From the NCBI GenBank assembly GCA_965226495.1, contig OZ245365.1, positions 3,040,001-3,104,000 of the forward strand: DNA of 64,000 bases. The letters run 5' to 3'. A program made the translations under genes and the position numbers. Below are positions 1 through 58,567 of the stretch, one piece after another (the first letter of the stretch is position 1; every line of letters starts with the position of its first letter). Below the pieces are notes generated by a model that was not told the origin of the DNA, did not search any database, and was given only the letters and a program-made list of their open reading frames with translations. The DNA is from Candidatus Marinacidobacterales bacterium (GTDB lineage: Bacteria; Acidobacteriota; Vicinamibacteria; Marinacidobacterales; DATDRI01).

Positions 1-305
1 GGGACCGCAACCCACTCCGCGTAGGTCCCACCGCGCGGAGAATAAACACCGACCCGATCTCCCACCCTGAACCGTGTGGTTCCCTCTCCGATTTCTTCCA
101 CCACCCCACTACCTTCGCAGCCTGGAATGAGCGGCGGTGGCGTCATCCCGGGATGGCTGGCGGTTCGACACAAGATGTCGGCAAAGTTCACGCCGCTCGC
201 GTGAACACGCACCAGCACTTCGCCAGACGCCGGTATGGGTTTCGGGGCATCGACGAGGACCAGCGCTTCCGGTCCACCGGCCTCCTCGACGCGAATCGCC
301 TTCAA
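1..305 (-). CDS. NADPH:quinone oxidoreductase / zinc-independent MDR family protein (5' part; runs off the window start)
   Basis: Not in ORF track. Manual translation from TTG at 305: MKAIRVEEAGGPEALVLVDAPKPIPASGEVLVRVHASGVNFADILCR...PLIPGCEGSGVVEEIGEGTTRFRVGDRV, a typical Qor N-terminal GroES-like domain. Confidence 0.85.
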   Translation of the reverse strand, partial: MKAIRVEEAGGPEALVLVDAPKPIPASGEVLVRVHASGVNFADILCRTASHPGMTPPPLIPGCEGSGVVEEIGEGTTRFRVGDRVGVYSPRGGTYAEWVAV

Positions 306-331
306 TGCAGGTATCCCAAGGTCTCCCTCGA

Positions 332-2044
332 TCAGTTGCGCAGGCGGTTGGTCGCATCCTCGTCTACCTTGTCGTCGACGAGTTCGACCTTATATGTATC
401 GCGCGCCGCCTCGCGGCTAACGTAGCCGTCGAGAACATCCTCGAGGACGCTCGAGGGCTCTCGCTCCGCCGGATCGCCATATCCCCCGCCACCCGAAGTG
501 AGGTTGCGGCAGCGGTCTCCGGCTTCGATTTGGACCCGCCGTGTCCCCACCCGTTTCTCGCGCTCCGTCTCGGGGAAGAGAATCATTCCGTTGGACGGCG
601 GTTCCAACCCTCCCGCCAGCGCCCAAGGCAGCGTCTTGGTTTTCTTCCGAACCGAAAGAAACTCGCCCGGGGAGATGAAACGGATGTCCCTCCTGAGGCC
701 TAGCCCCCCGCGCGACCGACCGGCACCACCGGAGTCGGTCCGCAACTCCAACCTCTCGAGAAACATTCCGGTCTTCAGCTCCAACACCTCGATCGGTGTA
801 TTGCGAACCATGCCTTGATTGGGATGGTTCACCGCGTTGCCGCCATCGTGGGTCGTCGTCGCGCCCCATCCCACCGGATCGTTGTTGCTGACCGCGAAGA
901 AGCGGCGAGTTTCTGGGTGTGTTCCTACCATCATGAAGCCGGGCACATCACCGCCGGACGATGCCTGAAGCCGTTCGGGCATCCCTTGGGTCAGCGCCTT
1001 GAAGATGAGCTCGAGCTGCGCGTTAGACGTCCACAGTGTGAACGTAGCGGACGGATAAGTCGCATGGAAAAGCGTTCCTGGCGGGGCAACTACCTCTAGA
1101 GGGCGAAAGTTGCCGGCGTTGGTCGGCGAACCGGGAGTCGTGAGCGCCTTGAAAACAACACGGGTCGTGCCCAAGGTGCGACCGTACGGTAAATTGACCG
1201 GGCCCGGTACCGCCGGAGACGAGCCAGTGAAGTCGACGAGAAAACGATCGTCGTCGATGGTAACAGTTACCTTCATCGGAATCGTATCGTCGGAGACGCC
1301 GTCGTCGTCCAGCAAATCCTCCGCGGTCCAGGTGCCATTGGGCAAAGATCGCAGGGCTTTACGCGCAAGCTGCTCCCCGTGCTCCAGGAGCCGGACCACC
1401 GCCGCATCATAGCCTTCGGGCCCGAACTTGCGCCGTATGTCGACCAGCCTTCTCTCTCCAACACGAGTAGACGCTACTTGAGCGTTCAGGTCTCCGAGCA
1501 CCGAATCCGGCATGCGCGAATTGAATCGGATGATGTCAATGATCTCCGGGTCCGGTTTTCCCTTTTTGTAGACCTTGGTACCGGGAAAAATCAGGCCTTC
1601 CTGATGCATGTCGGTGGAGTCGAGAACGTAGCCGGCATCCTTGGCCCCCAAATCCATCCAGTGCGCCCTGATGCACGTGTAGGCGAAGGGTCGGTCTTCT
1701 CCCGAGGCGAAGACCGGTGCGAAGAGTGTGACGTCGAGGGTATGCGCGGAGCTCCAATACGGATAGTTCAGCAGAACAATATCGCCGGGATCGAGGTTCT
1801 CCTCACCCACGTAGTCGACGCCTTTGCGGATGGCATAGTCGTTCGAACCAAGGAACGACAAGAGGCCCGGGGCCTCCGCCACCAGCTCGAGCTCACGACT
1901 GTAGATCGAGATGCCGAAGTCCAGGATTTCGTAGACGACAGGATTGAAGGCGGTGCGTATCAGCGTACGCCGCATCTCCCCAGCGGCAGAGAATAGGTAG
2001 CTCCGGATGACCTCGACCGTAGCCCCATCTAACTGTTTCGTCAT
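332..2044 (-). CDS. Hydantoinase B/oxoprolinase family protein (copy B2)
   Basis: 570 aa; LDF, NYPYW..AHTLD, AHWMDLG metal ligands; QEGLIFP; TDSGGAGRSRGG; GGGGYGDP. Confidence 0.93.
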   Translation of the reverse strand: MTKQLDGATVEVIRSYLFSAAGEMRRTLIRTAFNPVVYEILDFGISIYSRELELVAEAPGLLSFLGSNDYAIRKGVDYVGEENLDPGDIVLLNYPYWSSAHTLDVTLFAPVFASGEDRPFAYTCIRAHWMDLGAKDAGYVLDSTDMHQEGLIFPGTKVYKKGKPDPEIIDIIRFNSRMPDSVLGDLNAQVASTRVGERRLVDIRRKFGPEGYDAAVVRLLEHGEQLARKALRSLPNGTWTAEDLLDDDGVSDDTIPMKVTVTIDDDRFLVDFTGSSPAVPGPVNLPYGRTLGTTRVVFKALTTPGSPTNAGNFRPLEVVAPPGTLFHATYPSATFTLWTSNAQLELIFKALTQGMPERLQASSGGDVPGFMMVGTHPETRRFFAVSNNDPVGWGATTTHDGGNAVNHPNQGMVRNTPIEVLELKTGMFLERLELRTDSGGAGRSRGGLGLRRDIRFISPGEFLSVRKKTKTLPWALAGGLEPPSNGMILFPETEREKRVGTRRVQIEAGDRCRNLTSGGGGYGDPAEREPSSVLEDVLDGYVSREAARDTYKVELVDDKVDEDATNRLRN

Positions 2045-2180
2045 AGTGACTCAGTGCTCGCTCAATGAGTTGATCAGTGCGGCGGGGCCCCACCCCCACC
2101 GCCGTCCCTTCGCCGGCAAAGCGGCTTCGGGACAGCTGATGGCTCCTCGCGCAGGGTGCCGTGAGTTCGTCAGCACCCTG

Positions 2181-3908
2181 CTACTTCCCACTCCTCAGCT
2201 TGCGGGTACCCACTTCGTCCACTGCGTCGCCGTCGAGAGCAACTTTGTACGCTTCCCGGGCCGCTTCGCGAGACACGTACCCGTCGAGAACGTCCTCGAG
2301 AACTCGAGCCGGCTCGCGGCCAGCCGGATCGCCGTATCCCCCTCCGCCGGCCGTGAGATTGCGACAGGTGTCTCCCGCCACCACAGCGGCTCGGTAGGTC
2401 CCCACCTTCTTCTCCCGCTCTGTCTCCGGGCTGAGAACAAAGCCGTTCCGCATCGGTTCCTTACCGCCGGCGAGGGGCCAGGCGCTGGTCTTCGTCTTCT
2501 TCATCACCGAAAGGATCTCGCCGTCCGAGATGAACCGTATGTCGCGCCGAATGCCCGACCCGCCCCTAAACTTTCCTGGGCCTCCGCTATCGGTACGGAG
2601 CTCCAACCGCTCGAAGAACATTCCGGTCTTGACCTCCAAGACTTCCATAGGTGTATTGCGGACTAGACTTTCCGACAAATGGCTGTTGGCGTTGGCGCCA
2701 TCATGGTCGGGCGTTCCACCCCAGCCGACCGGATCGTTATTGCTCACGGCGAAGAAACGTTTCGTGTCCGGGTGAATCCCGACCATCATGAACCCGGGTA
2801 CGTCGCTTCCCGAGGAAGCCGCCATGCGCTCCGGCATACCTTTGGCGAGGGCCTTATAGATGAGCTCGAGCCCGACGATACCTGTCCACAACGTGAACGT
2901 CGCAGCCGGATAGACGGCGTGAAAGAGGCTTCCGGGTGGAGCGATGACCTCCAGAGGTGCGAAGTTGCCAGCATTGGTCGGGGAATAGGGAGTGGTCAAG
3001 GACTTGAGTACGACCTTGGCCATCGTCTCCGTTAAACCGAACGGAACATTGACCGGCCCCGGAACCCCCGGAGAAGAACCCGTGAAATCGACAAGGAACC
3101 GATCGTCATCGATCGTCACCGTGACCTTCATGGGGATCATGTCGTCGGACACGCCGTCGTCATCTAGCAGGTCTTCCGCAGTCCAGGAACCGTTGGGGAG
3201 CTCCCGGAGCGCCTTACGTGCCAGTTGTTCACCGTGCTCGAGGATACGCTCCACGGCGGCATCGAGGGTCTCGCGACCGAATTTCTGTAGAATCTCTATC
3301 AACCTCTTGTGGCCGGTGCGCGTCGCCGCGACCTGCGCATCGAGATCGCCGAATACCGACTCGGGCATGCGCGAGTTGAATCGGATGATCTCCATGATCT
3401 CTTTGTCCGGTTTGCCTTTTTTGTAAACCTTCGTACCCGGAAAAATTAGGCCCTCTTGGTGCATATCGGTCGAGTCGAGCACGTATCCCGGATCCTTGGC
3501 ACCGAGATCCATCCAGTGCGCGCGGATGCACGTATAGGCGAACGGCTTGTCCGAATGCGGCGCAAAGACCGGAGAAAATAGGGTGACGTCTAAAGTATGT
3601 GCGGCGCTCCAGTAGGGATAATTGAGAAGAACGATATCTCCGGGCTCGAGGTTCTCTTCGCCGACATGCTCCACCCCGTTGCGTATCGCATGGTCGTTGG
3701 CACCTAGAAAAAAAGTCAGGCTGGGAGCCTCGGCAACCAGCTGGAGGTCCCGGCTGTAAATCGAGATACCAAAGTCGAGAACCTCGTAGATGACCGGATT
3801 GAATGCCGTGCGGATGAGGGTTCTCCGCATCTCCCCGGCAGCCGAGAACAGATAGCTCCGAACGACTTCGACGGTGGCCCCGTCCAATTCCTCCGTCTGT
3901 CCCCTCAT
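2181..3908 (-). CDS. Hydantoinase B/oxoprolinase family protein (copy B1)
   Basis: 575 aa; same motifs; closely similar to 332-2044; ATGA overlap with the upstream A subunit. Confidence 0.93.
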   Translation of the reverse strand: MRGQTEELDGATVEVVRSYLFSAAGEMRRTLIRTAFNPVIYEVLDFGISIYSRDLQLVAEAPSLTFFLGANDHAIRNGVEHVGEENLEPGDIVLLNYPYWSAAHTLDVTLFSPVFAPHSDKPFAYTCIRAHWMDLGAKDPGYVLDSTDMHQEGLIFPGTKVYKKGKPDKEIMEIIRFNSRMPESVFGDLDAQVAATRTGHKRLIEILQKFGRETLDAAVERILEHGEQLARKALRELPNGSWTAEDLLDDDGVSDDMIPMKVTVTIDDDRFLVDFTGSSPGVPGPVNVPFGLTETMAKVVLKSLTTPYSPTNAGNFAPLEVIAPPGSLFHAVYPAATFTLWTGIVGLELIYKALAKGMPERMAASSGSDVPGFMMVGIHPDTKRFFAVSNNDPVGWGGTPDHDGANANSHLSESLVRNTPMEVLEVKTGMFFERLELRTDSGGPGKFRGGSGIRRDIRFISDGEILSVMKKTKTSAWPLAGGKEPMRNGFVLSPETEREKKVGTYRAAVVAGDTCRNLTAGGGGYGDPAGREPARVLEDVLDGYVSREAAREAYKVALDGDAVDEVGTRKLRSGK

Positions 3909-5947
3909 TTGGCCTCCGTCTGGATCACGAGTTGTCCGTAGGGATCCACGCGCACCGCTTGCTTCGAGTGAACGACGGTGGTCGATGTCCCCTCATCGAC
4001 GATGGCCGGGCCCTTGAACTCGTCCCCAGGCTGCAACGATTTCCGGCGATACACCTCGAAGGGGACGACCTTGCGAAGATCGAAGCAGTAAGCGTCTCTC
4101 GCTCCGAGAATGGCTCCGCCGAACGTGACTTCTTCTTTCGGAAGCTTGGCCATCTCGGGCTTGTCCATCAGGCCGCGGCCGCGGACTCGCAAGTTCACGG
4201 TTTGCATCAAATCCGACGTCGTATGTCCGTAGCGTGTCTTGTGCAAGGCTTCGAAGCGCTTGCGGAGCTCCTCGAACGGTAGCCCTGGCTCGACCGCGAC
4301 GTCCAAAGCGTGCTCTTGTCCCAGGTAACGGAGCTCCAGCACCCGATCGATTTCGATCTCGTTGTCGGACATACCTTGCTTCCGAAGCGCGTTGATCGCT
4401 TGTTTCTCGAGCTCCAGAAACCCGTTCTCCAACTTCTCGGGATCGTAATCTTCGAGCACTTGCACATCGGTGCGCGAGAAGTCGGCCGCGAGATCCGACA
4501 TCAACATTCCCCAAGCCGAAAAGGCCGCGGGTGCGAGAGGGACAATAGTCTGAGGTATGGCCATTTCCCGTGCCAGGAGAGGCGCGAACATCGGTCCCGC
4601 GCCCCCAAAAGCCAAGAGCGTGAACTCTGTCGGATCGTAGCCACGTTCTACGGAGATCTCGCGGATGGCACCGACAGTGTTCGCCATGACAACGTCGAAG
4701 ATCCCGGCCGCCGCTTCGAGGATATCGATCCCCAGAGGCTTGGCGATGACTCGCTCGATGCCCTGGCGACTCGCGTCCGCGTCGAGCTCCATGCGCCCCT
4801 TCAGAAATTTGTTCGGATCGATGTATCCGAGGGCCAGCGCCGCATCGGTCGTGGTCGGCTCGGTGCCTCCTTTGCCGTATGCGATTGGACCCGGCACCGC
4901 CCCCGCACTTTGCGGTCCCACTTTGAGCAGCCCTTCCTCGAGCCAGGCGATGGAGCCGCCACCGGCTCCGATGCTGCGGATGTCGTAGATCGGAATGAGG
5001 GCTGGGAGATGCTCGAGGTCGGCCTCGTGCATTAGAACCGGTTCCCCATCCTCGATGAGGCAAGCGTCCAGGCTGGTTCCGCCGAAGTCGACGGAGATGA
5101 GACGATTGTTGTCGAGCGTGCGCGCGACATGCGCGGCGCCGACGATGCCTCCTGCCGGTCCCGACATAACGGTGAAGATCGGGCTCCGACGAGCCACCTC
5201 CGCGGTCATAGCTCCGCCGCTCGAGCGCGTGATGAGGAATCTTCCTTCGAAGCCTCTCGCTCCCAACTCTTCTTCCAGCCGATCGACGTACTCCTCATAG
5301 ATGGGACGAATGTAAGCATCGAGGACCGTCGTGCTCGTGCGCTCGTACTCACGATACTCGCGCGTGATATCGGTGGAGATCGAAACCGCAACCTCCGGAA
5401 AGTTTTCCTTCAACAGGCGCGCCGCGCGCTGCTCATGCTCCGGGTTCTTGTAGGAGTGCAAGAAAACAACTGCTAGCGAGCGGAGCTCGTGATCTTCGAT
5501 CAAGGTTCGCGCCGCTTCCAGGAGTGCCTTTTCGTCGAGCTCTTCGACGACCTCGCCCTTGACGTTGATGCGCCCGGGGACTCCCGCAGTGTGCCGCCGT
5601 CTCACCAGGGGTACCGGCTTTTCGTACCGGAAGTTGTACATGTGTTCCGCCGGGACGTTGGCGCGACCGATCTCGAAGATGTCTCGAAAGCCTTCGTTGG
5701 TAATGATGCCGGTAAGAGAGCCCTTCCTTTGGAGAATGGCATTGAGACCGAGGGTGGTGCCGTGAATGAAAAGGCTCGCTTGTTTTAGGTCGGTCCCAAG
5801 CTTCTCGAGGGCCTCGAGCACTCCCTTCCAAGGCTCTTGGGGAGTCGTCTGCGATTTCTCGAGGCGGACCGACTGGTTCGACACATCGAACTCGATGGCG
5901 TCGACGAACGTACCCCCGATGTCGACCGCGAGTCGGTATGGCTTCAT
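3905..5947 (-). CDS. Hydantoinase A/oxoprolinase family protein (ATP-binding subunit)
   Basis: Start reassigned to MKPYRLAVDIGGTFVD (ATG 5947, ATGA overlap with the upstream stop); HGTT, REYER.STT, SGPAGG, DFGGTS, IGAGGGSI, PQSAGAVPGP. Confidence 0.93.
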   Translation of the reverse strand: MKPYRLAVDIGGTFVDAIEFDVSNQSVRLEKSQTTPQEPWKGVLEALEKLGTDLKQASLFIHGTTLGLNAILQRKGSLTGIITNEGFRDIFEIGRANVPAEHMYNFRYEKPVPLVRRRHTAGVPGRINVKGEVVEELDEKALLEAARTLIEDHELRSLAVVFLHSYKNPEHEQRAARLLKENFPEVAVSISTDITREYREYERTSTTVLDAYIRPIYEEYVDRLEEELGARGFEGRFLITRSSGGAMTAEVARRSPIFTVMSGPAGGIVGAAHVARTLDNNRLISVDFGGTSLDACLIEDGEPVLMHEADLEHLPALIPIYDIRSIGAGGGSIAWLEEGLLKVGPQSAGAVPGPIAYGKGGTEPTTTDAALALGYIDPNKFLKGRMELDADASRQGIERVIAKPLGIDILEAAAGIFDVVMANTVGAIREISVERGYDPTEFTLLAFGGAGPMFAPLLAREMAIPQTIVPLAPAAFSAWGMLMSDLAADFSRTDVQVLEDYDPEKLENGFLELEKQAINALRKQGMSDNEIEIDRVLELRYLGQEHALDVAVEPGLPFEELRKRFEALHKTRYGHTTSDLMQTVNLRVRGRGLMDKPEMAKLPKEEVTFGGAILGARDAYCFDLRKVVPFEVYRRKSLQPGDEFKGPAIVDEGTSTTVVHSKQAVRVDPYGQLVIQTEAK

Positions 5948-7119
5948 GATGGATCCTTTCGAACGATGCGGCCCGCCTGCATGACGAAGAAGATCCCTTC
6001 GAGCGCTCTGATGTCTTTGAGCGGGTCCTCCCGGACCGCAATGAGATCCGCACAGTAGCCTGGTTGGACAAGCCCGACGTCGCCGTCTATACCCATGAGC
6101 TCGGCAGGGCGTATGGATGAGGAACGAATCGCCTCGAGTGGCGACAGGCCCGCGTCGACCATATAGGACATCTCGCGTACGGTGGCGTTGACTCCGTCCG
6201 AAACTTCGCCGGGTGGTATGTCGGTACCGTTGACGATCTGGACTCCAGCTCGCACTGCGGTGCGGATGCTGTCCAAGTGCATGCCACCGGCCCCGGTAGC
6301 CTTCTCGATGGTCCAGCCCGCGAACCCGTGATCCTTCATCCATCCCGGCGACCGCGTCACCGACAGCGTCGGTACGACATATCCCGCGGCGTCTTTGATG
6401 GCCTGGCAGGCTTCCCTATCGAGCTGATATCCGTGCTCGAAGCAGCGGACTCCGGCCTTCGCGGCCTTGATGATCTGCCCCGCCCCGCCCGAGTGCGCGC
6501 AGACGTAGGTGTCCCGGGATCGCGCCACCGAAACGACGGCCTCCATCTCCTCGACACTCATCTGGGGCTCGGAGAAGGTCTCCTTCTCCTGCGCGATGCC
6601 GCCGGTGATGAAGATCTTGATGTGGTCGGCGCCTGCGGTGAGCTCCTCGCGACCGGCCTTGCGAAAGGAGTCCGGACCGTCGGCGATCAGCGCCCCGAAG
6701 CCGCTCCCGTGCCCTCCCGTCACCGAAATGCTCTTGCCGCCGGAGACGATGCGAGGCCCGGTGGCCCAACCCTTCTGAATCATCGTCCGCAAGGACAGAT
6801 CGGCGCGATGCATTTCTCCCACCGTTCGGAGGGTGGTGATCCCCGCCTGGAGTGCGTCATTCGCCCTCTTCTGACACCGCAAAGCCGTGATCGCCGGGCT
6901 CTCGTTCTCGTCCGTTTCATGAAACGGAAAGACGATGGATAGATGGGTATGACAAGTGATGATGCCGGGAAGCAAGTAAGCGCCTTCGAGATCAATAGCG
7001 TCGTTGTCACCTGCCGCGGTATCTATGGAAGCTATCTTGCCGTCACCGATGGTCAGCGATCCCTCCTTGAAGGAACCCTCCCCGACATCCAGGATTCTTG
7101 CGTTGGTCAGTACGGTCAT
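5944..7119 (-). CDS. Metal-dependent amidohydrolase (prolidase-like subfamily), cytoplasmic
   Basis: 391 aa; PGIITCHTH, TGGHG, carboxylated-Lys IKIF, AH, EHG, NGTD, G..ADL. Confidence 0.9.
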   Translation of the reverse strand: MTVLTNARILDVGEGSFKEGSLTIGDGKIASIDTAAGDNDAIDLEGAYLLPGIITCHTHLSIVFPFHETDENESPAITALRCQKRANDALQAGITTLRTVGEMHRADLSLRTMIQKGWATGPRIVSGGKSISVTGGHGSGFGALIADGPDSFRKAGREELTAGADHIKIFITGGIAQEKETFSEPQMSVEEMEAVVSVARSRDTYVCAHSGGAGQIIKAAKAGVRCFEHGYQLDREACQAIKDAAGYVVPTLSVTRSPGWMKDHGFAGWTIEKATGAGGMHLDSIRTAVRAGVQIVNGTDIPPGEVSDGVNATVREMSYMVDAGLSPLEAIRSSSIRPAELMGIDGDVGLVQPGYCADLIAVREDPLKDIRALEGIFFVMQAGRIVRKDPS

Positions 7120-8414: not shown

Positions 8415-8430
8415 TACACCGGCCTATTAA

Positions 8431-46633: not shown

Positions 46634-46658
46634 TGTGTAACGGGTCCCTACTACTCGG

Positions 46659-48735: not shown

Positions 48736-48747
48736 GTGGGTTCCGAC

Positions 48748-49776: not shown

Positions 49777-49786
49777 CGAGGTCGTC

Positions 49787-50521: not shown

Positions 50522-50563
50522 AATGACCCTCTAGGTGCTATAACCTCAGAAAGAGGGGTTGCC

Positions 50564-52107: not shown

Positions 52108-54864
52108 GTGCCGAAGAAAAAAAACCTCAGCTTTAAAGTGAATGGTCAGACCGAGACGCTCGAAGTCTCTTCACGCACCCGACTCCTCGACGCTCTGCGG
52201 CTAGGACTCGGACTCACCGGCACCAAGGAAGGGTGCGGCACCGGAGACTGTGGCACCTGCACCGTTCTCCTCGACGGGCGTCCCGTCAATTCCTGCTTGG
52301 TCATGGCGCTCCAATCCGAGGGTCGCGAAGTCACCACCGTCGAAGGCCTGGGAACGCGCGGCCGGCTCGATCCGATTCAAGACGCGATGGTGCAGTGCGG
52401 CGGTATCCAATGCGGTTTCTGTACTCCCGGCATGGTGATGTCGCTGAAAGGGTTGATGGCGAGAAACCCCCAACCGACCGAGGAAGAAGTTCGCGTCGCC
52501 ATCTCGGGGAATCTCTGTCGTTGTACCGGCTACAGCAAGATTCTCGAGGCCGCCCAAAGCGTGGTCGACGGCGTGAGGCCCGACAAGCCCGATGGCACTA
52601 TCGGGTCGCGTTTCGTTCGCACCGACACGGTAGAGAAAGTCACCGGCCGGGCCGTCTACGCCGAAGATATCCAACTTCCGAAAATGATCTACGGCGTGGT
52701 GGTGCGGAGCCCTTATCCCCACGCGCGTATCCTTTCCATCGACACGTCCGAAGCGAAAGAGATTCCCGGAGTCAAAGCGGTCGTCACCGGCCGCGATTTC
52801 GAGATGGGTTTTTACGGCATCGACCTACAAGACCAGCAGATCTTCGCGCTGGACAAAGCGCGATTCCTCGGCGAACCGGTGGCGGCGGTAGCGGCGTCGA
52901 CACTAGATCTCGCGCGCGAGGCTGCGGACAAGGTCCAAATCGAGTACGAAGAGCTCCCCGCGGTTTTCGATACGGAAGAAGCGATTGCCGCAGAGGCCCC
53001 TCTGGTTCATCTCGACGTGAACGAATACGAGCACAATTGGAAATCGGAACGGACCGGGAATCTCTGCTACCAAACGTGGATCGGTCACGGCGATGTCGAC
53101 AAAGGGTTTGCGGAGTCGGACTTCGTCGTAGAGGGAACGTACCGCACCCCGGTCGCTCACCCCGGTGCCATCGAACCGCATAGCGCGACCGCCGAGGTGG
53201 ATCCTTCCGGTCGGGTCACCGTTTGGACCACGACGCAGAAGCCGTTTGCGGTTCGGGCCTACCTCGCTCGTGCGTTCAAACGGCCGGTGAACGATTTCAA
53301 GGTCGTACAAACCCATATCGGCGGCGGCTTCGGTGGCAAAGTCGTCCTTTGTCTCGAGCCTTACGCGGTCACCCTGGCCGAGCGGGCCGGCGTTCCGGTG
53401 CAGATGACATTGACGCGCGAAGAAGAGATGTCGACCACGACGCTCCGGCACCCGGCAAGAGTTCGTCTCGAGACCGGCGTTAAGCGCGATGGCACGTTGG
53501 TGGCGCATCGGGCGCGGATCCTATTCGATACCGGCGCCTACTCCGGCGACGGCCCGACGGCGGGGGCGCTTGCGACGCTGATGGCCACCGGCCCCTATCG
53601 ATTCGAGCACGTCGACGTGACCGCGCTGGTTACATACACCAACAACATTCCCTGCGGTTCTTGCCGATGCCCAGCCGGACCGCAAATGGCGTTCGCGGTC
53701 GAGACCCACTTGGAAAAGATCGCTCGGCGGCTAGGCATGGACAGTCTAGAGTTTCGTCTCAAGAATGCCTGGGTAGACGGAGACTACACGCACACCGGCC
53801 AGGAGCTCACGTCGGTGAGCGTCAAGGAGTGCCTCGAGAAGGCCGCTGGGGCAATCGACTGGGGCACACCTCGAGCGCCGGGAGTCGGTCGAGGCTTGGC
53901 CTGTAATTGGTGGGTCAGTGGAACCTGGGCGACATCGACCCTGATGGAGACCAACGAGGACGGCACCTTTCGTCTTGTCTCAGGTGGTGTCGACATGGGA
54001 ACGGGCGCCATGGGAACGAGCGTGTTGCAGATGGCGGCCGCAGGGCTCGGCGTGTCTCCCGAATCTATCCAACTCGTTCGCGGCGACACCGACACGCTTC
54101 CCTGGGATCACGGACACGGAGGGAGCCGAATGGCCTTCACGGTAGGGCGTTCGGCATACGAAGCGGCTCTGGACCTCAGGAAACAGCTGCTGGATGAAGC
54201 GGCGGGTGTGCTAGAAGCACACGCGGACGCGCTCGAGATTGAGGGTGACAACATCCGAGTCCGAGAGGAGCCAGAGCGTTCGGTTTCATTGGCCCGCATC
54301 TGCTATCGACGGCACAAGAAACATGGAGGCCCTTTAATCGGGAAATCTTCGTTGCTACTCGAGCCTCCCCCGACCGAGCGGACCCGACACCGCGATCATC
54401 CGTATCCCGCGTTTCCCGCGCCCAGCTTCTGCGCGCATGCCGTCGAGCTCGTGGTGGACGACGAGACCGGCGAAATCACCGTGAAGCGCTATTCGGCGGC
54501 ACACGACGTGGGGAGAGCGATCAACCCCACTGCGTGCGAAGGCCAGATCGAGGGTGGCGTGTCCATGGGGCTCGGGTTGGCGCTATCGGAAGAGATTCGA
54601 GAAGAGAACGGGAAGGTGCTCAATCCGAATTTCGCGGACTACCTACTTGTGACCGCGGAGGACATGCCGCCCACGCAAACGTTCTTGGTGGAAAAACCCG
54701 CCGTCGAAGGCCCGTTCGGAGCCAAGGGTGTTGGCGAGCCGCCCGCCGCTCCACCGACCGGAGCGGTCGCCAACGCGCTCACCGATGCGTTGGGCGTCGA
54801 TGTCGTTCGGCTTCCTCTTCATTCCGAAGAGGTCGTGTCTCTCATTAGGACGCGCCGTTCCTGA
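52108..54864 (+). CDS. Fused (2Fe-2S)+molybdopterin-binding xanthine dehydrogenase/aldehyde oxidoreductase family subunit (copy 1)
   Basis: GCGTGDCGTC, QCGFCTPG, NLCRCTGY, GGGFGGK, DMGTG, GQIEGG, AKGVGEP. Confidence 0.92.
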   Translation: MPKKKNLSFKVNGQTETLEVSSRTRLLDALRLGLGLTGTKEGCGTGDCGTCTVLLDGRPVNSCLVMALQSEGREVTTVEGLGTRGRLDPIQDAMVQCGGIQCGFCTPGMVMSLKGLMARNPQPTEEEVRVAISGNLCRCTGYSKILEAAQSVVDGVRPDKPDGTIGSRFVRTDTVEKVTGRAVYAEDIQLPKMIYGVVVRSPYPHARILSIDTSEAKEIPGVKAVVTGRDFEMGFYGIDLQDQQIFALDKARFLGEPVAAVAASTLDLAREAADKVQIEYEELPAVFDTEEAIAAEAPLVHLDVNEYEHNWKSERTGNLCYQTWIGHGDVDKGFAESDFVVEGTYRTPVAHPGAIEPHSATAEVDPSGRVTVWTTTQKPFAVRAYLARAFKRPVNDFKVVQTHIGGGFGGKVVLCLEPYAVTLAERAGVPVQMTLTREEEMSTTTLRHPARVRLETGVKRDGTLVAHRARILFDTGAYSGDGPTAGALATLMATGPYRFEHVDVTALVTYTNNIPCGSCRCPAGPQMAFAVETHLEKIARRLGMDSLEFRLKNAWVDGDYTHTGQELTSVSVKECLEKAAGAIDWGTPRAPGVGRGLACNWWVSGTWATSTLMETNEDGTFRLVSGGVDMGTGAMGTSVLQMAAAGLGVSPESIQLVRGDTDTLPWDHGHGGSRMAFTVGRSAYEAALDLRKQLLDEAAGVLEAHADALEIEGDNIRVREEPERSVSLARICYRRHKKHGGPLIGKSSLLLEPPPTERTRHRDHPYPAFPAPSFCAHAVELVVDDETGEITVKRYSAAHDVGRAINPTACEGQIEGGVSMGLGLALSEEIREENGKVLNPNFADYLLVTAEDMPPTQTFLVEKPAVEGPFGAKGVGEPPAAPPTGAVANALTDALGVDVVRLPLHSEEVVSLIRTRRS

Positions 54865-54923
54865 GCCCGCGGCAGCATCATTTGGGGTTGCCCCGCGTCT
54901 GACATAGTAGAATAATTCCAACC

Positions 54924-57707
54924 ATGAAAAAGACTCTGAACTTCACGGTCAACGATCAACCCGAAACGATTGACGTCACTCCCCGGACCCGTCTGCTCGA
55001 TGCACTCCGAGTCGACATGGGCCTGACCGGCACGAAAGAAGGATGCGGCACCGGCGACTGCGGGAGCTGTACGGTGCTCTTGGATGGCAAGGCCGTGAAT
55101 TCATGCATGGTTTTGGCGCTCCAAGCCGAAGGAAGAAACATCACCACCATCGAGGACTTGGGAAAACCGGGTACTCTCCACCCGATCCAGCAAGCCATGG
55201 TGCAGTGCGGCGGCATCCAGTGTGGGTTTTGCACCCCAGGGATGGTGCTTTCGCTGAAGGCGCTTCTTGATGAGAATCCCCGCCCGGACGAGAAAGAGAT
55301 CCGCGTCGCCATCTCGAGCAACCTTTGCCGGTGCACCGGCTATAGCAAGATCCTCGATGCCGCGAAGGCGGTGGTCGACCGAGCGGCAACCCCGGGAGCC
55401 GCATCCTCTGGCAACGGCAATGCCAAACCTGAGGATGGCTCGATTGGATCGCGCATGGTGCGAACCGACGCCGCGGAGAAAGTGACCGGACGCGCGGTCT
55501 ATGCCGAAGACATTCGGCTCCCGCGCATGATTTACGGTGTGCTGGTTCGCAGCCCCCACGCGCACGCGGAGATCCTCTCCATCGATACCTCCGAGGCGGA
55601 GAAGTTGCCAGGGGTCAAGGCGGTGGTCACCGGCCACGATGTCGAGATGGGTTACTACGGAATCGATCTTCAGGATCAGCAAATATTTGCGTTGGAGAAA
55701 GCGCGTTTTCTGGGCGAGCCCGTAGCCGCTGTTGCGGCGACGACGCCCGACATCGCGCGGGAAGCGGCTTCGAAGGTGAAGGTAGAATACCAGGAGCTGC
55801 CGGGGGTCTTCGACGCAGAGGAAGCGATCGCCTCGGACGCGCCACTCGTGCACGACGACGTCAACACCTATGAGCACAATTGGGAGTCGGACCGGAAGGG
55901 AAACCTTTGCTTCCAAGCGTGGGTCGGAGAGGGTGACGTCGAAAAAGGATTCGCCGAGTCAGATCACGTGATCGAAGGCACCTACTACTCACCGGTGGCG
56001 CACCCCGGCTCTATCGAACCGCACAGCTCGACGGCCATGGTGGATCCCTCAGGACGGATCACGGTGTGGACCACCAACCAAAAGCCCTTCGCGGTCCGAA
56101 GTTATCTGGCCCGTGCGTTCAAGCGACCGGTGAATTCGTTCAAGATCGTTCCGACCCACATCGGCGGAGGCTTCGGCGGCAAATTGGTCCTTTGTCTCGA
56201 GCCCTACGCGGTGATACTCGCGGAGCGGTCCGGACTTCCGGTGCAAATGACCTTGACACGCGAGGAGGAGATGGCGACCACGACGCTTCGCCATTCGGCC
56301 AAGGTCGAGCTCAAGACCGGCGTCAAGAAGGACGGCACCTTGGTGGCTCATCGGGCGCGCCTTTTGTTCAATACCGGCGCTTACTCCGGTGACGGCCCTA
56401 CCGCAACGGCGCTCGCAACTTTGATGGCCACTGGCCCCTATCGATTCCCGAACTTGGACATCACGGGCCTCGTGTCGTACACGAACAATGTTCCCTGTGG
56501 TTCCTGCCGGTGTCCGGCCGGGCCGCAGATGGCCTTCGCGGTAGAAACGCACCTCGAGAAGGTGGCACGCGCCATCGATATGGACAGCCTGAAGTTCCGC
56601 CTCAAAAACGCGTGGGAAGACGGTGACACGACGTGCACCGGACAGGCCCTGGACTCGGTCAGCGTGAAGGAGTGCCTGCAAAAAGCGGCGGATGGCGTGG
56701 AGTGGGACAAGCCGCGTGCGCCCGGCGTCGGAAAAGGACTGGCTTGCAACTGGTGGGTCAGCGGAACTTGGGGTACTTCCACGCTAGTAGAAACGAACGA
56801 AGACGGCACCTTCCGTCTCCTCTCGGGTGGTGTCGACATGGGCACCGGTGCTATGACCACGAGTGTGCTGCAAATGGCGGCAGCCGGTCTCGGCGTGCCC
56901 CCCGAGTCGATTCAGCTCGTTCGGGGTGATACCGACACGCTCCCCTGGGATCATGGGCACGGCGGCAGCCGTATGGCGTTCACCGTCGCGCGGTCGGCCT
57001 ATGAAGCCGCTGAAGATCTCAAAGATCAGTTGCTCCAAGAGGGTGCGCACCAGCTCGAGGCTTCGATCGACGAGCTGGCCCTCGAGGGCGATCGTATTTT
57101 CGTCCGCGAGGATCCGTCGCGCTCGGTGCCTCTGTCGAAGATTTGCTACTACCGTCACAAGAAACACGGGGGGCCGTTGATCGGTCGCTCGTCGATCCTG
57201 GACGACCCCCCTCCGACGCCAAAGGGACGACACCGTTTCCATCCTTATCCGGCCATGCCGGCACCGAGCTTCTGCGCCCATGCGGTGGAGCTCGCGGTGG
57301 ACGACGAGACCGGCGAGGTTTCCGTGACGCGCTACGCGGCCGCTCACGATGTGGGCAAAGCCATCAACCCCACGAGTTGTGAAGGGCAGATCGAAGGCGG
57401 CGTCGCCATGGGACTCGGGCTCGCGTTGATGGAGGAACTGCGCGAAGTAAACGGGAAGGTCCTGAATCCAACCCTCGCCGACTATCTTCTTCTGACCGCC
57501 GAGGATATGCCTCCCATGAAAACAATTTTGGTCGAGAAACCCGCGACCGAGGGACCGGTCGGGGCCAAAGGAGTCGGTGAGCCACCCATTGCGCCGCCCA
57601 CCGGTGCGGTTGCCAACGCACTGACGGAGGTGCTGGATGTCAACGTCGATCGCCTTCCGCTGACTCCTGAAGAGGTCTCGACACTCATCGGAGCACGAAA
57701 ATCATGA
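54924..57707 (+). CDS. Fused (2Fe-2S)+molybdopterin-binding subunit (copy 2, tandem paralog)
   Basis: Same motifs; highly similar to copy 1. Confidence 0.92.
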   Translation: MKKTLNFTVNDQPETIDVTPRTRLLDALRVDMGLTGTKEGCGTGDCGSCTVLLDGKAVNSCMVLALQAEGRNITTIEDLGKPGTLHPIQQAMVQCGGIQCGFCTPGMVLSLKALLDENPRPDEKEIRVAISSNLCRCTGYSKILDAAKAVVDRAATPGAASSGNGNAKPEDGSIGSRMVRTDAAEKVTGRAVYAEDIRLPRMIYGVLVRSPHAHAEILSIDTSEAEKLPGVKAVVTGHDVEMGYYGIDLQDQQIFALEKARFLGEPVAAVAATTPDIAREAASKVKVEYQELPGVFDAEEAIASDAPLVHDDVNTYEHNWESDRKGNLCFQAWVGEGDVEKGFAESDHVIEGTYYSPVAHPGSIEPHSSTAMVDPSGRITVWTTNQKPFAVRSYLARAFKRPVNSFKIVPTHIGGGFGGKLVLCLEPYAVILAERSGLPVQMTLTREEEMATTTLRHSAKVELKTGVKKDGTLVAHRARLLFNTGAYSGDGPTATALATLMATGPYRFPNLDITGLVSYTNNVPCGSCRCPAGPQMAFAVETHLEKVARAIDMDSLKFRLKNAWEDGDTTCTGQALDSVSVKECLQKAADGVEWDKPRAPGVGKGLACNWWVSGTWGTSTLVETNEDGTFRLLSGGVDMGTGAMTTSVLQMAAAGLGVPPESIQLVRGDTDTLPWDHGHGGSRMAFTVARSAYEAAEDLKDQLLQEGAHQLEASIDELALEGDRIFVREDPSRSVPLSKICYYRHKKHGGPLIGRSSILDDPPPTPKGRHRFHPYPAMPAPSFCAHAVELAVDDETGEVSVTRYAAAHDVGKAINPTSCEGQIEGGVAMGLGLALMEELREVNGKVLNPTLADYLLLTAEDMPPMKTILVEKPATEGPVGAKGVGEPPIAPPTGAVANALTEVLDVNVDRLPLTPEEVSTLIGARKS

Positions 57708-58567
57708 TCAACGACTTCGAGTTCACGCAGCCGCGGGATGTTCCAGAAGCCCTCAAGGCCTTGACCGAAAAAGGTCGGATCGTGCCGGTTGCCGGCGGTA
57801 CCAACGTTTTGGTCAACATGAAACGCGCCCCCTTGGAGGCCGACCTCGTCGTTGATTTGACCCGGCTCGAAGCCTTGCAACCGATTTCGAGTGACAACGG
57901 AACCATCCGTCTCGGAGCGGGTGTCTCGTTCGCTCGCCTCCTCGAATGGAGCCCGGGTGGTGCGATCGAAGGGCTGATGCGACCGATGTGCGTCGCATTC
58001 GCTGGCCCGCTCATCCGCAACCTGGCGACGGTGGGCGGAAACATCTGCGACGCGTCTCCGGCCGCCGACGTGTCTCCTCCCCTTCTCGCGCTCGATGCCA
58101 GCGTAAATTTGGAAAGCGCTTCAGGCGGATCACGCTCGCTCGCCCTGCCGGAATTCTTCCAAGGGGTCCGCAAGACGGGACGACGCGCCGATGAGTTGGT
58201 CACGAGCATCGAGTTCACGAAACCCGATGACGATGAGCACTGGTTCTACTACAAGCTCGGCAAGCGCAAGGCCGATGCGATCTCGATCGTCAGCATCGCT
58301 ATGACGGTGAAGCTCTCACGAGGTAAAGTAGAGAGGGCACGGATCGCCTTGGGTGCGGTGGCGCCGGTGGCCGTGCGCTCTCCCGAGGCCGAAGGGGTTC
58401 TTCGCGGCGAGGCATTGAGCGATACCATCATCGCCGCCGCAGCGGCAGCTGCTGCTAAGGAATCGCGGCCGATCGACGATTTCCGGGCGAGCGGTAACTA
58501 CCGGCGGCAGATGGTAGAGGTTCTGGTGAAAAGAGGCCTCAAGGCAATCGCGCGGCGGGACAAATGA
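57704..58567 (+). CDS. FAD-binding subunit of molybdenum hydroxylase (CoxM/XdhB-like)
   Basis: AGGTN, IRNLATVGGN....SPAAD, IALGAVAP, PIDDFRAS..YR; ATGA-coupled. Confidence 0.92.
   Translation: MINDFEFTQPRDVPEALKALTEKGRIVPVAGGTNVLVNMKRAPLEADLVVDLTRLEALQPISSDNGTIRLGAGVSFARLLEWSPGGAIEGLMRPMCVAFAGPLIRNLATVGGNICDASPAADVSPPLLALDASVNLESASGGSRSLALPEFFQGVRKTGRRADELVTSIEFTKPDDDEHWFYYKLGKRKADAISIVSIAMTVKLSRGKVERARIALGAVAPVAVRSPEAEGVLRGEALSDTIIAAAAAAAAKESRPIDDFRASGNYRRQMVEVLVKRGLKAIARRDK

Follow-up and report, generated by a model that had tools for sequence, protein, structure and literature searches.

Does this stretch of the genome of an uncultivated acidobacterium encode one integrated system for the capture and degradation of nitrogen heterocycles, or several separate systems built around related receptors? 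The initial annotation of the window (the whole stretch of 64,000 nucleotides that was analysed) had favored the former and described a PUL-like island. Using Pfam and NCBIfam, we recovered every gene class that it had named: three Oar-subclass TonB-dependent transporters (TBDT_A, TBDT_B and TBDT_C), two NCS1 permeases, five amidohydrolases, four MBL hydrolases, two HyuA and three HyuB genes, and three Mo-hydroxylase large subunits with a FAD subunit. The MBL genes listed were all present, but the count was short by one: a fourth had been missed at 47626-48735 on the plus strand, where the longest ORF is a spurious one on the minus strand. Recent paralogue pairs are frequent (HyuB 77% identical, XDH 77%, Amd_2/Amd_3 70%, MBL_1/MBL_2 67%, TBDT_A/TBDT_C 95%).

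The label 'PUL-like' holds by analogy only, because the window contains no SusD and no CAZyme. It also contains no classical peptidase family detectable with Pfam, and a riboswitch search found none that might name a ligand. No enzyme passed an NCBIfam equivalog cut-off, so none identifies a substrate. Nor are the amidohydrolases classical cyclic amidases: the D-hydantoinase model TIGR02033 scores 32-42 bits where it matches (cut-off 393) and does not match Amd_1 at all. By eye, Sec, lipoprotein or Tat signals can be read on Amd_2, Amd_3, Amd_4, Amd_5, hyp165, hyp237, the esterase, BlaC, MBL_3, MBL_4 and the DAO flavoprotein. That many hydrolases appear to be exported, as had been claimed, fits outer-membrane uptake followed by periplasmic hydrolysis.

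Two receptor-led modules

The genes around the first receptor (module A) lie in the order originally described:

8493-11738, minus: TBDT_A, Oar-subclass TonB-dependent transporter, 1081 aa (CarboxypepD_reg, OMP_b-brl_4, TonB_dep_Rec_b-barrel)
8441-8468, minus: terminator-like hairpin in the TBDT_A/NCS1_1 gap, 12-bp stem with 11 GC pairs, then CTTTTCTCTC
7116-8414, minus: NCS1_1 permease (PF02133)
5944-7119, minus: Amd_1, cytoplasmic HxH amidohydrolase of Cc2672/prolidase/ochratoxinase type (Amidohydro_1)
3905-5947, minus: HyuA_1 (Hydant_A_N, Hydantoinase_A, Hydant_A_C)
2181-3908, minus: HyuB_2 (Hydantoinase_B, 526 bits)
332-2044, minus: HyuB_1 (Hydantoinase_B, 516 bits)
3-305, minus: quinone-oxidoreductase-like Qor, N-terminal 101 aa before truncation at the window edge (PIG3-family, partial)
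11952-13118, plus: GntR-family regulator, divergent from TBDT_A (GntR HTH domain)

TBDT_A is 94.6% identical to TBDT_C and 53% to TBDT_B; its match to the Plug domain is weak (18.8 bits). The best solved relative of NCS1_1 is the hydantoin permease Mhp1 (110.7 bits), while CodB scores 74.7 bits. Overlaps of 4 nt join NCS1_1 to Amd_1 and HyuA_1 to HyuB_2; the HyuA_1 ORF extends to 6343, the ATG at 5947 being the likely start. HyuAB resembles N-methylhydantoinase and caprolactamase, with HyuA_1 matching N-methylhydantoinase 7hk5 at 408 bits, and HyuB_2 is 77.5% identical to HyuB_1. Amd_1, on which no signal peptide was seen by eye, matches PDB 9kov (201.6 bits) and Cc2672 (179.6 bits). The C-terminal ~240 aa of the regulator had no Pfam match. 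The strong hairpin between TBDT_A and NCS1_1, which sits within a tract duplicated with TBDT_C, makes co-transcription of the two genes uncertain.

Module B has the gene order that had been given for a 'receptor 3', although its receptor is the second by position:

23844-27104, minus: TBDT_B (Pfam), likely start ATG 27050
22316-23830, minus: Amd_3, exported subtype VIII (NxH) amidohydrolase, likely start 23770, signal peptide by eye
21257-22294, minus: cytoplasmic luciferase-like flavin monooxygenase, LLM (Bac_luciferase, 210 bits)
20717-21214, minus: hyp165, secreted small beta-barrel protein, 165 aa, of an unnamed Acidobacteriota family
19248-20756, minus: Amd_2, exported subtype VIII (NxH) amidohydrolase, likely start 20702
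18248-19201, minus: MBL_1, cytoplasmic MBL-fold hydrolase (Lactamase_B, Lactamase_B_2)

Intergenic gaps in this module are ~13 to 73 nt, and no hairpin lies downstream of TBDT_B. The AF2 model of TBDT_B (pLDDT 89.3, pTM 0.87) matched solved TBDTs over their whole length in Foldseek, among them FusA, YddB, Cir, PfeA and BtuB (E down to 4e-34; TMt 0.67-0.79 among these named matches). FusA handles protein cargo. A TonB-box-like stretch, GVEETITVMA, can be read by eye in the receptor consensus. With their CarboxypepD_reg extension at the N-terminus and their barrel domains, the window receptors are genuine Oar-subclass TBDTs. The hyp165 family comprises 171 clusters, and its AF2 model (pLDDT 89.2) has a DUF3224/AOC/dirigent-like fold (TM 0.5-0.7). 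The best PDB matches of MBL_1 are an arylsulfatase (8gyg, 84 bits), RNase Z and PNGM-1.

Amide or peptide chemistry

Our best explanation, held with moderate confidence, is that the window carries separate scavenging modules for nitrogen-rich small molecules, in which a clade of Oar-type TBDTs has co-diversified with C-N hydrolase modules. It builds on the gene families observed, on how the genes are ordered and tightly packed, on motifs and folds, and on linkage specific to the clade; the matches of Amd_2, Amd_3, HyuA_1, HyuB_3/HyuA_2 and NCS1_1 also suit the chemistry. The strongest rival, though an unlikely one, is scavenging of peptides or modified amino acids: the receptors would take up oligopeptides, dipeptides or amino acids bearing N-acyl or N-carbamoyl groups, the 'amidohydrolases' would be carboxypeptidases or prolidases, and HyuAB would open 5-oxoproline-type residues. 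For all five amidohydrolases the best NCBIfam match is indeed a Caulobacter Xaa-Pro dipeptidase model (125-262 bits, below its cut-off of 500). Amd_1 matches the L-Arg carboxypeptidase Cc2672 and Xaa-Pro dipeptidases, and HyuA_1 matches a chain deposited as '5-oxoprolinase' (6yra, 360 bits). Elsewhere, an M20 peptidase adjoins a paralogous receptor (locus L004), and S9, M20 or M28 peptidases often lie beside distant Oar-type receptors.

Against this, Amd_2 and Amd_3 share their NxH metal motif with the subtype VIII amidohydrolases MolA, PuhB and PipM. Amd_3, with an NVH motif, matches MolA at 363 bits and PuhB at 320 bits; in the alignment of Amd_2 to MolA (~342-343 bits), N-x-H, K, H, H and D are conserved. 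In the available part of the source, the characterised members of this subtype act on ureas, thiocarbamates and tertiary amides rather than on peptides, and PipM provides a precedent for alkaloid amides (PMC12753220). The inner-membrane carrier, moreover, is an NCS1 protein of the nucleobase/hydantoin type and not a peptide transporter, and the lack of classical peptidase families in the window likewise counts against peptides.

The remaining genes and the proposed single pathway

Beyond modules A and B, the window holds the following:

27481-32612, minus: MFS transporter, serine beta-lactamase-fold hydrolase and Mo-hydroxylase large subunit (706 aa), between TBDT_C and TBDT_B
32600-34006, plus: Amd_4, exported lipoprotein-like HxH amidohydrolase, convergent with TBDT_C
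34142-37384, minus: TBDT_C, orphan near-copy of TBDT_A, followed by a hairpin at 34089-34118
37609-39290: hyp237 (secreted, minus) and an alpha/beta-hydrolase esterase (plus), upstream of TBDT_C
39757-43774, plus: HyuB_3 and HyuA_2, caprolactamase-like pair, likely starts 39925 and 41705
44377-47573, minus: MBL_2 then NCS1_2 (45356-46717) in one operon, and an XRE-type HTH regulator
47626-51919, plus: MBL_4 (Tat), MBL_3 (Tat), SDR and Amd_5 (Sec signal)
52108-58567, plus: two paralogous FeS-MoCo fusion proteins (77% identical) and one FAD subunit

HyuB_3 and HyuA_2 score 834.7 and 914.4 bits on the caprolactamase models CapB and CapA (cut-off 1000), and NCS1_2 is 59% identical to NCS1_1. For hyp237, Atlas yields a lead only (0.86). 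That receptors head operons of hydrolase genes was borne out for TBDT_A and TBDT_B, but TBDT_C heads none, its next gene being convergent. The tract shared by TBDT_A and TBDT_C is 93.8% identical inside the window versus 82.7% between the two sister-genome orthologues, which looks like recent gene conversion. Because TBDT_C heads nothing despite this conversion-like tract and its 94.6% identity to TBDT_A, the receptor sequence is not tailored to module A.

All of these gene classes fall inside 58 kb, and the initial annotation had joined them into a single PUL-like pathway of capture, periplasmic trimming, NCS1 import, Mo-dependent N-heterocycle hydroxylation and ATP-dependent lactam opening. 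At locus L003, and partly at L002, synteny extends from TBDT_B to MBL_2: L003 keeps the order of the 27481-32612 genes and the adjacency of Amd_4 and TBDT_C, and both loci keep hyp237 and the esterase. This synteny is weak evidence for one pathway, since it is seen only between genomes whose receptor DNA is ~82% identical. The PDB matches of the Mo-hydroxylase family include nicotinate and quinoline hydroxylases, but the best match of XDH_1 is the D. gigas aldehyde oxidoreductase (338 bits). No XDH-family gene was seen near the clade receptors at L001, L004 or L005; linkage of the Mo-hydroxylases to these receptors is not recurrent beyond close relatives. The genes form at least seven transcription units on both strands with at least two regulators, and in the sister genome 0.57 Mb or more separates module A from the B/C region. 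We therefore consider one integrated pathway improbable.

Linkage of the receptor clade to amide hydrolases

The originally quoted motifs RPSASDQG and DNFSTLRVPP are invariant across the three window receptors. Their clade comprises 56 clusters at 43% identity or more, followed by a gap to 38%, and forms one branch in the tree (59 rows versus 64, support 100). DNFSTLRVPP occurs with at most one mismatch in 42 of the 56 clade members, while all 64 outside members have five or more. For each receptor we took up to three ORFs whose starts fall in the 5 kb downstream, and scored the locus as linked when they included one or more genes of the Amidohydro_1/3, Lactamase_B, Hydantoinase or NCS1 families. 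This was the case for 7 of 8 clade loci and for 0 of 64 distant Oar-type receptor loci (164 ORFs scanned; Fisher p = 5e-9, or 9e-8 for 5/5 locus types). All clade loci for which context is available belong to about four related genomes; these loci are not phylogenetically independent, and shared ancestry could explain part of the linkage.

The proposed linkage to amidohydrolase, MBL, HyuB and NCS1 genes is thus recurrent and specific, and it extends to L004 and L005. At L005, in a more distant genome, a receptor 52% identical to TBDT_B is accompanied by the same families in a different order: a HyuB upstream (66% to HyuB_1) and, downstream, an MBL with a Tat signal (59% to MBL_4) plus two lipoprotein amidohydrolases resembling Amd_4 (48%). 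The L004 paralogue (57% to TBDT_B) adjoins an exported Amidohydro_1 protein, the M20 peptidase, which has a Tat signal, and a creatininase-family protein. L001, the A-type locus of the sister genome, has NCS1 but just a fragment of the amidohydrolase, then IS elements, with no Hyu genes; at L002 the receptor is followed by an esterase and an IS21 element.

Could the adjacency be meaningless, the product of tandem duplication in a paralogue-rich stretch of a genome with many TBDTs and hydrolases? The many recent paralogue pairs, the hairpin after TBDT_A, the orphan TBDT_C and the small number of related genomes would all be in keeping with this, but we think it doubtful: the four families are absent from the 64 distant loci and, among 22 ORFs scanned, from the regions upstream of the L001 and L004 receptors, both of the sister genome, and the association survives rearrangement in L005 at ~50-66% protein identity. 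Least probable is that the receptors would instead be exporters, delivering the adjoining periplasmic hydrolases to the cell surface or the medium, as might be suggested by the domain architecture they share with the Myxococcus xanthus Oar protein, required for secretion of the protease PopC (PMC6434023), by the signal-peptide-bearing hydrolases flanking TBDT_B, TBDT_C and the L004 and L005 receptors, and by top structural matches to the large TBDTs FusA and YddB. Against export, PopC secretion is the sole such case cited in the available part of the source, the sequences carry no sign of transport direction, and module A combines a receptor, an inner-membrane importer and cytoplasmic enzymes, an import logic.

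Under the scavenging-module explanation, for which transport direction, substrates, co-transcription and every catalytic step are proposed, a hydantoin-, lactam- or ureide-like compound would enter the periplasm through TBDT_A and the cell through the Mhp1/CodB-like NCS1 permease. ATP-dependent HyuA/HyuB would open its ring, and the Cc2672-type amidohydrolase would remove the resulting N-carbamoyl or N-acyl group, the unit being under the GntR regulator. In module B, a bulkier N-substituted amide, urea or carbamate would be imported by TBDT_B and cleaved in the periplasm by the two exported amidohydrolases, possibly assisted by ligand binding to hyp165; the LLM monooxygenase and MBL hydrolase would process the products in the cytoplasm. 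Several points count against this explanation: the hairpin after TBDT_A, the orphan TBDT_C, the gene contexts of L001 and L002, the few related genomes behind the linkage, and the absence of any equivalog-level match or riboswitch. In addition, hydantoin-sized molecules should need no TBDT, and module B has no inner-membrane transporter.

Judged from its sequence, the amide/ureide catabolic locus type linked to TBDTs is real; its logic is known, and this variant is new. In this marine-type member of the Vicinamibacteria, close to Candidatus Marinacidobacterales, a small lineage-specific clade of Oar-subclass TBDTs would have diversified alongside modules that hydrolyse C-N bonds other than peptide bonds, in amides, ureas, carbamates and ring amides. 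Rather than forming one pathway, and rather than serving sugar uptake, each module would be its own high-affinity system for scavenging small organic molecules rich in nitrogen.

Gene content and organisation

ORF listing together with Pfam and NCBIfam profiles gave about 42 genes in the window, at about 59% G+C. The inventory of the initial annotation, made from the sequence alone, was correct, and its set of MBL-fold hydrolases stood with one further gene added, MBL_4. The main features are as follows.

Features of the window (coordinates, strand, description)
At the window edge, minus strand: quinone-oxidoreductase-like gene, end of module A, first 101 residues, cut by the edge
332-2044, minus: HyuB_1, module A
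2181-3908, minus: HyuB_2, module A
3905-5947, minus: HyuA_1, module A
5944-7119, minus: Amd_1, cytoplasmic amidohydrolase, module A
7116-8414, minus: NCS1_1, permease, module A
8493-11738, minus: TBDT_A, receptor A, CarboxypepD_reg plus OMP_b-brl_4/TonB_dep_Rec domains
11952-13118, divergent from TBDT_A: GntR-family regulator
23844-27104, minus: TBDT_B, receptor B, same domains
34142-37384, minus: TBDT_C, receptor C, same domains
39757-43774, plus: HyuB_3 and HyuA_2, second HyuB/HyuA pair
47626-48735, plus-strand array: MBL_4, fourth MBL gene

Module A runs in the order TBDT_A, NCS1_1, Amd_1, HyuA_1, HyuB_2, HyuB_1 and the quinone-oxidoreductase-like fragment, with two HyuB genes to one HyuA and with 4-nt overlaps at the NCS1/amidohydrolase and HyuA/HyuB junctions. 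This is the gene order first proposed, but a strong terminator-like hairpin at 8441-8468 lies between TBDT_A and NCS1_1. Module B consists of TBDT_B, Amd_3, a luciferase-like monooxygenase, the secreted 165-aa protein hyp165, Amd_2 and an MBL hydrolase, with intergenic gaps of approximately 13 to 73 nt and no hairpin 3' of TBDT_B. This putative operon had been assigned to a third receptor; it belongs to the receptor that is second by position, and receptor C heads none.

A sulfatase-TPR protein is located between the modules. Elsewhere the window holds an MFS transporter, a serine-beta-lactamase-fold hydrolase, a 706-aa Mo-hydroxylase subunit, Amd_4, a secreted 237-aa protein (hyp237), an esterase, an XRE-type regulator, an MBL_2-NCS1_2 operon, and a plus-strand array with two Tat-signal MBLs, an SDR, Amd_5, two FeS-MoCo fusion proteins and one FAD subunit. 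Two minus-strand ORFs were rejected as spurious: 39326-39931 overlaps the 5' extension of HyuB_3, and 47617-48504 lies opposite MBL_4. An Rfam scan of the full window, aimed at a ligand-indicating riboswitch, gave no matches at gathering scores, and a tRNA scan of the window found no genes.

Several further genes deserve comment in their own right. A putative esterase (15466-16351), distinct from the one listed above, occupies two overlapping frames, 15466-16029 and 15833-16351, of which the former covers only positions 7-123 of the 251-position Esterase profile and the latter has no Pfam match; either the gene is frameshifted or the sequence contains an error. At 16427-18203, a Tat-signal flavoprotein of the monomeric sarcosine/N-methyltryptophan oxidase type adjoins a lipoprotein c-type cytochrome, a pairing that suggests a periplasmic dehydrogenase of amines or N-methyl amino acids passing electrons to cytochrome c. 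Approximately 240 C-terminal residues of the GntR regulator had no Pfam match at E <= 0.01, and the protein therefore fits none of the usual GntR effector-domain subfamilies. Just beyond the region of interest, 58576-61753 encodes a GWxTD-domain TPR protein and a reductive-dehalogenase/QueG-like Fe-S protein. At 62513-63999, profile positions 1-88 are missing from the sodium:solute symporter ORF, and an open-ended ORF in a different frame overlaps it; this pattern suggests that the reading frame is shifted or the start wrongly called.

The receptors, their clade and its neighbourhoods

All three receptors carry CarboxypepD_reg (PF13620, 58-64 bits) in an N-terminal extension, as in the Oar subclass defined in PMC6434023, and their barrels are recognised by matches to PF00593 and PF25183 rather than by a strand-by-strand count. 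The Pfam plug (PF07715) scored 18.8 bits in A and 20.5 bits in B, both under the cut-off of 23.9, and is annotated in some clade homologues in a precomputed list. A PDB sequence search with TBDT_A gave no matches at E <= 1e-3. For TBDT_B, an AlphaFold2 model built on 77 homologues (pLDDT 89.3, pTM 0.87) was matched by Foldseek to FusA, YddB, Cir, PfeA, PqqU and BtuB, with E-values down to 4e-34 and target-normalised TM-scores of 0.67-0.79 for these solved TonB-dependent transporters (TBDTs); it aligned over approximately 950-1045 columns with full-length TBDTs, plugs included. On the strength of this full-length match the receptors are taken as genuine TBDTs, and their domain architecture is that of the Oar subclass. 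A TonB-box-like stretch, GVEETITVMA, was seen by eye in the receptor consensus; no ton genes lie within the window.

A protein search with TBDT_B returned 56 clusters at 43% identity or more (at least 761 bits), below which identity drops sharply to 38% (633 bits) at Vicinamibacterales TBDTs. In a FastTree phylogeny of 123 rows, one branch with support 100 splits 59 clade rows from 64 outside rows. The motif DNFSTLRVPP is present with at most one mismatch in 42 of the 56 clade members, and all 64 outside members have at least five mismatches; RPSASDQG is less well kept (at most one mismatch in 11/56). Several clade members occur on one long contig, indicating several copies per genome.

The window is rich in paralogues, and receptors A and C stand out among them.

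Protein identity between paralogues of the window
TBDT_A and TBDT_C: 94.6%
TBDT_A and TBDT_B: 53%
HyuB_1 and HyuB_2: 77.5%
XDH_1 and XDH_2 (Mo-hydroxylases): 77%
Amd_2 and Amd_3: 70%
MBL_1 and MBL_2: 67%
NCS1_1 and NCS1_2: 59%

At the DNA level A and C are 93.8% identical (8430-11683 versus 34079-37332), over a tract that comprises the gene and 63 nt downstream, hairpin included. Their orthologues in a sister genome, at the loci L001 and L003 described below, share only 82.7% DNA identity, equal to between-genome values, and there the hairpin lies 3' of the C-type copy only. Taken together, these patterns point to a recent C-to-A gene conversion in the lineage of the window, in which C, together with the hairpin that follows it, would have overwritten A. 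If A was overwritten in this way, the case that receptor A is tuned to module A is weaker.

To measure linkage beyond the window, we searched genome contigs and obtained 79 loci, among which the receptor reaches at least 50% identity in only five (L001-L005). A single Candidatus Marinacidobacterales MAG (an order within Vicinamibacteria), the sister genome, supplied three of them, L001, L003 and L004; L002 is from a second MAG of that order and L005 from another Acidobacteriota MAG. L003 is syntenic with the window at 27-47 kb. L001, of A type, has the receptor, an NCS1 permease 85% identical to NCS1_1, an amidohydrolase fragment and then IS elements; the Hyu genes are absent. On both sides (1-9400 and 15300-23241) this locus is bordered by pieces of transposase genes of the rve, Mutator, ISL3, IS110 and IS21 types. 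In L004 a receptor 57% identical to B is followed by an exported Amidohydro_1 protein, a small ORF, a Tat-signal M20 peptidase and a creatininase-family protein. In L005 the receptor is 52% identical to B, and a HyuB gene (66% to HyuB_1) lies immediately upstream at the contig end; downstream are a Tat MBL (59% to MBL_4), two Amidohydro_3 proteins and a GFO-family oxidoreductase, then two lipoprotein amidohydrolases (48% to Amd_4) and an MFS transporter. L002 departs from this pattern, with an esterase and an IS21 element downstream. In both L001 and L002 the receptor ORF is broken into two pieces, perhaps through indel errors in the assemblies.

As background we used the remaining 74 loci, whose receptors do not exceed 38% identity. 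For each receptor we took no more than three ORFs, each 100 aa or longer and with its start in the 5 kb downstream, which gave 164 background ORFs from 64 loci, 90 of them on the receptor's strand. Since phmmer with the window proteins against the 74 distant loci was too insensitive for family-level claims, Pfam at E <= 1e-8 was used on all 164 ORFs (140 + 24). None of them matched Amidohydro_1/Amidohydro_3, Lactamase_B, Hydantoinase_A/B or Transp_cyt_pur; there was one each of Amidohydro_2, Creatininase and CN_hydrolase, together with several peptidases (M20, S9, M28, Zn_peptidase), sulfatases, CAZyme-like proteins and many unrelated genes. By the same rule, seven of the eight clade loci were positive (window A, B and C, L001, L003, L004 and L005), L002 being negative, as were all five locus types. 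The corresponding Fisher p-values, 5e-9 by locus and 9e-8 by locus type, are too favourable, as only about four genomes, related to one another, supplied the clade loci. Most can be learned from L005, where the same families recur, rearranged, at 48-66% protein identity. The recurrent linkage of this receptor clade to NCS1, HyuB, amidohydrolase and MBL genes, for which the initial annotation had proposed a test, was thus seen within this small set of genomes.

In the upstream flanks of L001 and L004, the four families were found in none of the 22 ORFs scanned, so the sister genome is not saturated with them. That receptors and enzymes are neighbours with no functional coupling is improbable in our judgement. 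Among distant Oar-type receptors, the next gene in L007 (13438-14868) and L016 (13341-14771) is a same-strand glutamine synthetase gene; others precede S9, M20 or M28 peptidases, sulfatases or CAZyme-like genes, and many different neighbourhood types appear to exist.

Enzymes and permeases

Amd_2 and Amd_3, which carry Sec signals by eye, matched molinate hydrolase MolA (343 and 363 bits) and phenylurea hydrolase PuhB (299 and 320 bits). In the alignment with MolA, Amd_2 keeps the Asn-X-His (NVH), Lys, His, His and Asp residues, and Amd_3 has the same NVH. Among nine amidohydrolases compared, only these two have NxH; the others, including Amd_1, Amd_4 and Amd_5, have HxH. Asn-X-His...Lys...His...His...Asp is the metal-binding motif that defines amidohydrolase subtype VIII, whose characterised members hydrolyse a dimethylurea, an azepane thiocarbamate and piperine, a piperidine amide (PMC12753220). 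By their sequence motif, Amd_2 and Amd_3 would belong to this subtype, further marked by Zn/Co dependence and a tetrameric state; this agrees with the NxH amidohydrolase first noted. Amd_1, Amd_4 and Amd_5 resemble the Cc2672/prolidase/ochratoxinase group. We rejected cyclic amidohydrolases (D-hydantoinase/dihydropyrimidinase or allantoinase) as an identity for any of the five, as scores were far under the equivalog cut-offs: 32-42 bits against 393 for D-hydantoinase TIGR02033 (Amd_2 to Amd_5, with no match for Amd_1), and, for all five, 25-33 bits against 358 for allantoinase TIGR03178.

Both HyuA genes gave full-length matches to Hydant_A_N, Hydantoinase_A and Hydant_A_C, and all three HyuB genes to Hydantoinase_B. 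The nearest relatives of HyuA_1 are N-methylhydantoinase 7hk5 (408 bits) and a chain deposited as 5-oxoprolinase, 6yra (360 bits). Against the caprolactamase CapAB equivalogs NF050156/NF050157 (cut-off 1000), HyuA_2 and HyuB_3 scored 914.4 and 834.7, both under cut-off, while HyuA_1 reached 536 and HyuB_1 and HyuB_2 reached 233 and 215. The NCS1 permeases pass PF02133 (151 and 108 bits), and fall under the cut-offs of the subfamily models (TIGR00800, 162 versus 353; cytosine permease, 144 versus 326; CytX, 150-162 versus 310). Among solved structures, NCS1_1 is closest to the hydantoin permease Mhp1 (110 bits), with CodB at 75.

The MBLs are RNase Z/arylsulfatase/PNGM-1-like, a resemblance that assigns them no substrate. 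The Mo-hydroxylase domain set is complete (two 2Fe-2S domains, a/b hammerhead, MoCo-binding, plus the FAD subunit), and the equivalogs failed (4-HBCR alpha, 535 versus 995; Se-dependent XDH, 533 versus 830). The nearest relatives of the FeS-MoCo fusions, at most putative N-heterocycle hydroxylases, are Desulfovibrio gigas aldehyde oxidoreductase and 4-hydroxybenzoyl-CoA reductase. The fusions lie in tandem at 52108-58567 (918 and 927 aa, 77% identical) and share one downstream FAD subunit; in being fused they resemble the D. gigas enzyme, which lacks FAD.

Hyp165 (20717-21214) belongs to a family of 171 clusters without a Pfam model, from Acidobacteriota where named. In its AF2 model (pLDDT 89) the protein forms a small beta-barrel comparable to those of DUF3224, allene oxide cyclase and dirigent proteins, and it may have a ligand-binding role; it has no similarity to the small ORF at the matching place in L004. 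An Atlas look-up for hyp237 (best score 0.86) gave a lipocalin-like lead only, which was set aside.

Interpretation and relation to known systems

The initial annotation read the region as a single system for modified nucleobases, alkaloids or lactams. This is unsupported because it comprises at least seven transcription units, because module A lies at least 0.57 Mb from B/C in the sister genome (5.08 Mb on a 5.69-Mb contig read linearly, 0.57 Mb if circular), and because no XDH-family gene occurs in L001, L004 or L005. The best-supported reading, whose chances we would put at about even, is that of separate TBDT-linked modules scavenging amide, urea, carbamate or ring-amide molecules. Module A would act by NCS1 import and then cytoplasmic ring opening, and module B by periplasmic hydrolysis with its subtype VIII enzymes. 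Peptide scavenging we regard as unlikely; peptidases do adjoin distant Oar-type receptors, and an M20 peptidase occurs in L004; against it stand the subtype VIII motif of Amd_2 and Amd_3, the NCS1 type of the carrier and the lack of classical peptidase families in the window.

More tentatively, the loci may represent an undescribed class, "amide utilisation loci", a proposal that we consider possible though rather doubtful. Here a specialised clade of Oar-type TBDTs would import small nitrogen-rich molecules (substituted ureas, hydantoins, lactams and alkaloid-type amides); the first step, in the periplasm, would fall to exported subtype VIII amidohydrolases, and NCS1 and ATP-dependent HyuAB would act at and within the cytoplasm.

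Polysaccharide utilisation loci (PULs) of Bacteroidota are defined by a SusC/SusD pair, with CAZymes. The description of the region as PUL-like holds for the shared logic of capture, cleavage and import, but not for the defining genes: there was no SusD-family Pfam match among the 42 window proteins scanned, and no glycoside hydrolase or lyase family, nor any CAZyme, in the window. Xanthomonas CUT loci combine a TBDT with an inner-membrane transporter, degradative enzymes and a regulator (PMC1790865). As in PUL and CUT loci, a TBDT here adjoins exported hydrolases, an inner-membrane carrier and a regulator; unlike them, the receptors are of the Oar subclass, the enzymes act on C-N bonds and the carrier is NCS1.

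Hyu clusters with Mhp1 likewise link an NCS1 permease to ring-amide-opening enzymes (PMC4195764), although NCS1_1 resembles Mhp1 at only 110 bits and the window differs in having ATP-dependent HyuAB, no D-hydantoinase-type amidohydrolase and a TBDT ahead of the unit. The window shares complete HyuA/HyuB domain sets with CapAB, N-methylhydantoinase and 5-oxoprolinase (PMC8453981); unlike CapAB, its scores all fall under the equivalog cut-off of 1000 and module A has two HyuB to one HyuA. Amd_2 and Amd_3 share the subtype VIII motif with PuhA, PuhB, MolA and PipM, of which all but PipM were characterised on man-made herbicides (PMC4407906 and PMC12753220). PipM has no signal peptide according to the latter text, whereas Amd_2 and Amd_3 have Sec signals and stand behind a TBDT in an acidobacterium.

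Oar of Myxococcus xanthus, with a CarboxypepD_reg extension, a plug with TonB box and a 22-strand barrel, is a reported exporter of the protease PopC (PMC6434023). The window receptors have the same extension and barrel domains, with a plug match under cut-off and a TonB-box-like stretch, a likeness of architecture rather than of measured sequence relatedness, which could favour export of that type; but they form a distinct Vicinamibacteria clade and module A at least shows import logic, and we hold export to be very improbable. Returning to scavenging by uptake, two TBDTs offer analogies in which the molecule taken up with high affinity is small and organic, yet neither siderophore nor sugar: that for lignin-derived biphenyl in Sphingobium (Fujita et al. 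2019, cited in PMC13390362) and PqqU, for a non-carbohydrate organic (PMC12124388). Both belong to other TBDT subfamilies, and the available parts of these papers describe no link to amidohydrolase, HyuAB or NCS1. An ochratoxin transcriptome (PMC11640390) and an activated-sludge secretome (PMC11495043) mention TBDTs and amidohydrolases without linkage in the text available.

NCS1 with hydantoin-opening enzymes, HyuAB lactamases and subtype VIII amidohydrolases are individually known already. We found no description of a locus combining TBDT, NCS1, HyuAB and amidohydrolase in the full-text literature searched, which leaves most subscription journals outside, and the name Marinacidobacterales in no paper of the same scope. 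What appears new, judging from sequence comparison in few genomes, is a receptor clade that is clearly bounded and whose enzyme neighbours are both consistent and unusual.

To our knowledge, TBDTs beyond iron, vitamin and glycan uptake are poorly charted, and hardly any substrates have been assigned to the very large Oar-type families of Acidobacteriota. Should the linkage fail in more genomes, the finding would shrink to a paralogue-rich gene neighbourhood. If the proposal of amide utilisation loci is true, the herbicide-degrading PuhB/MolA subtype would find its natural place in the turnover of dissolved organic nitrogen by marine Acidobacteriota. A receptor clade with amide-, urea- and ring-amide-cleaving neighbours is a testable handle on how abundant uncultivated bacteria may harvest organic nitrogen, and on what subtype VIII amidohydrolases, known chiefly for breaking down herbicides, do in nature.
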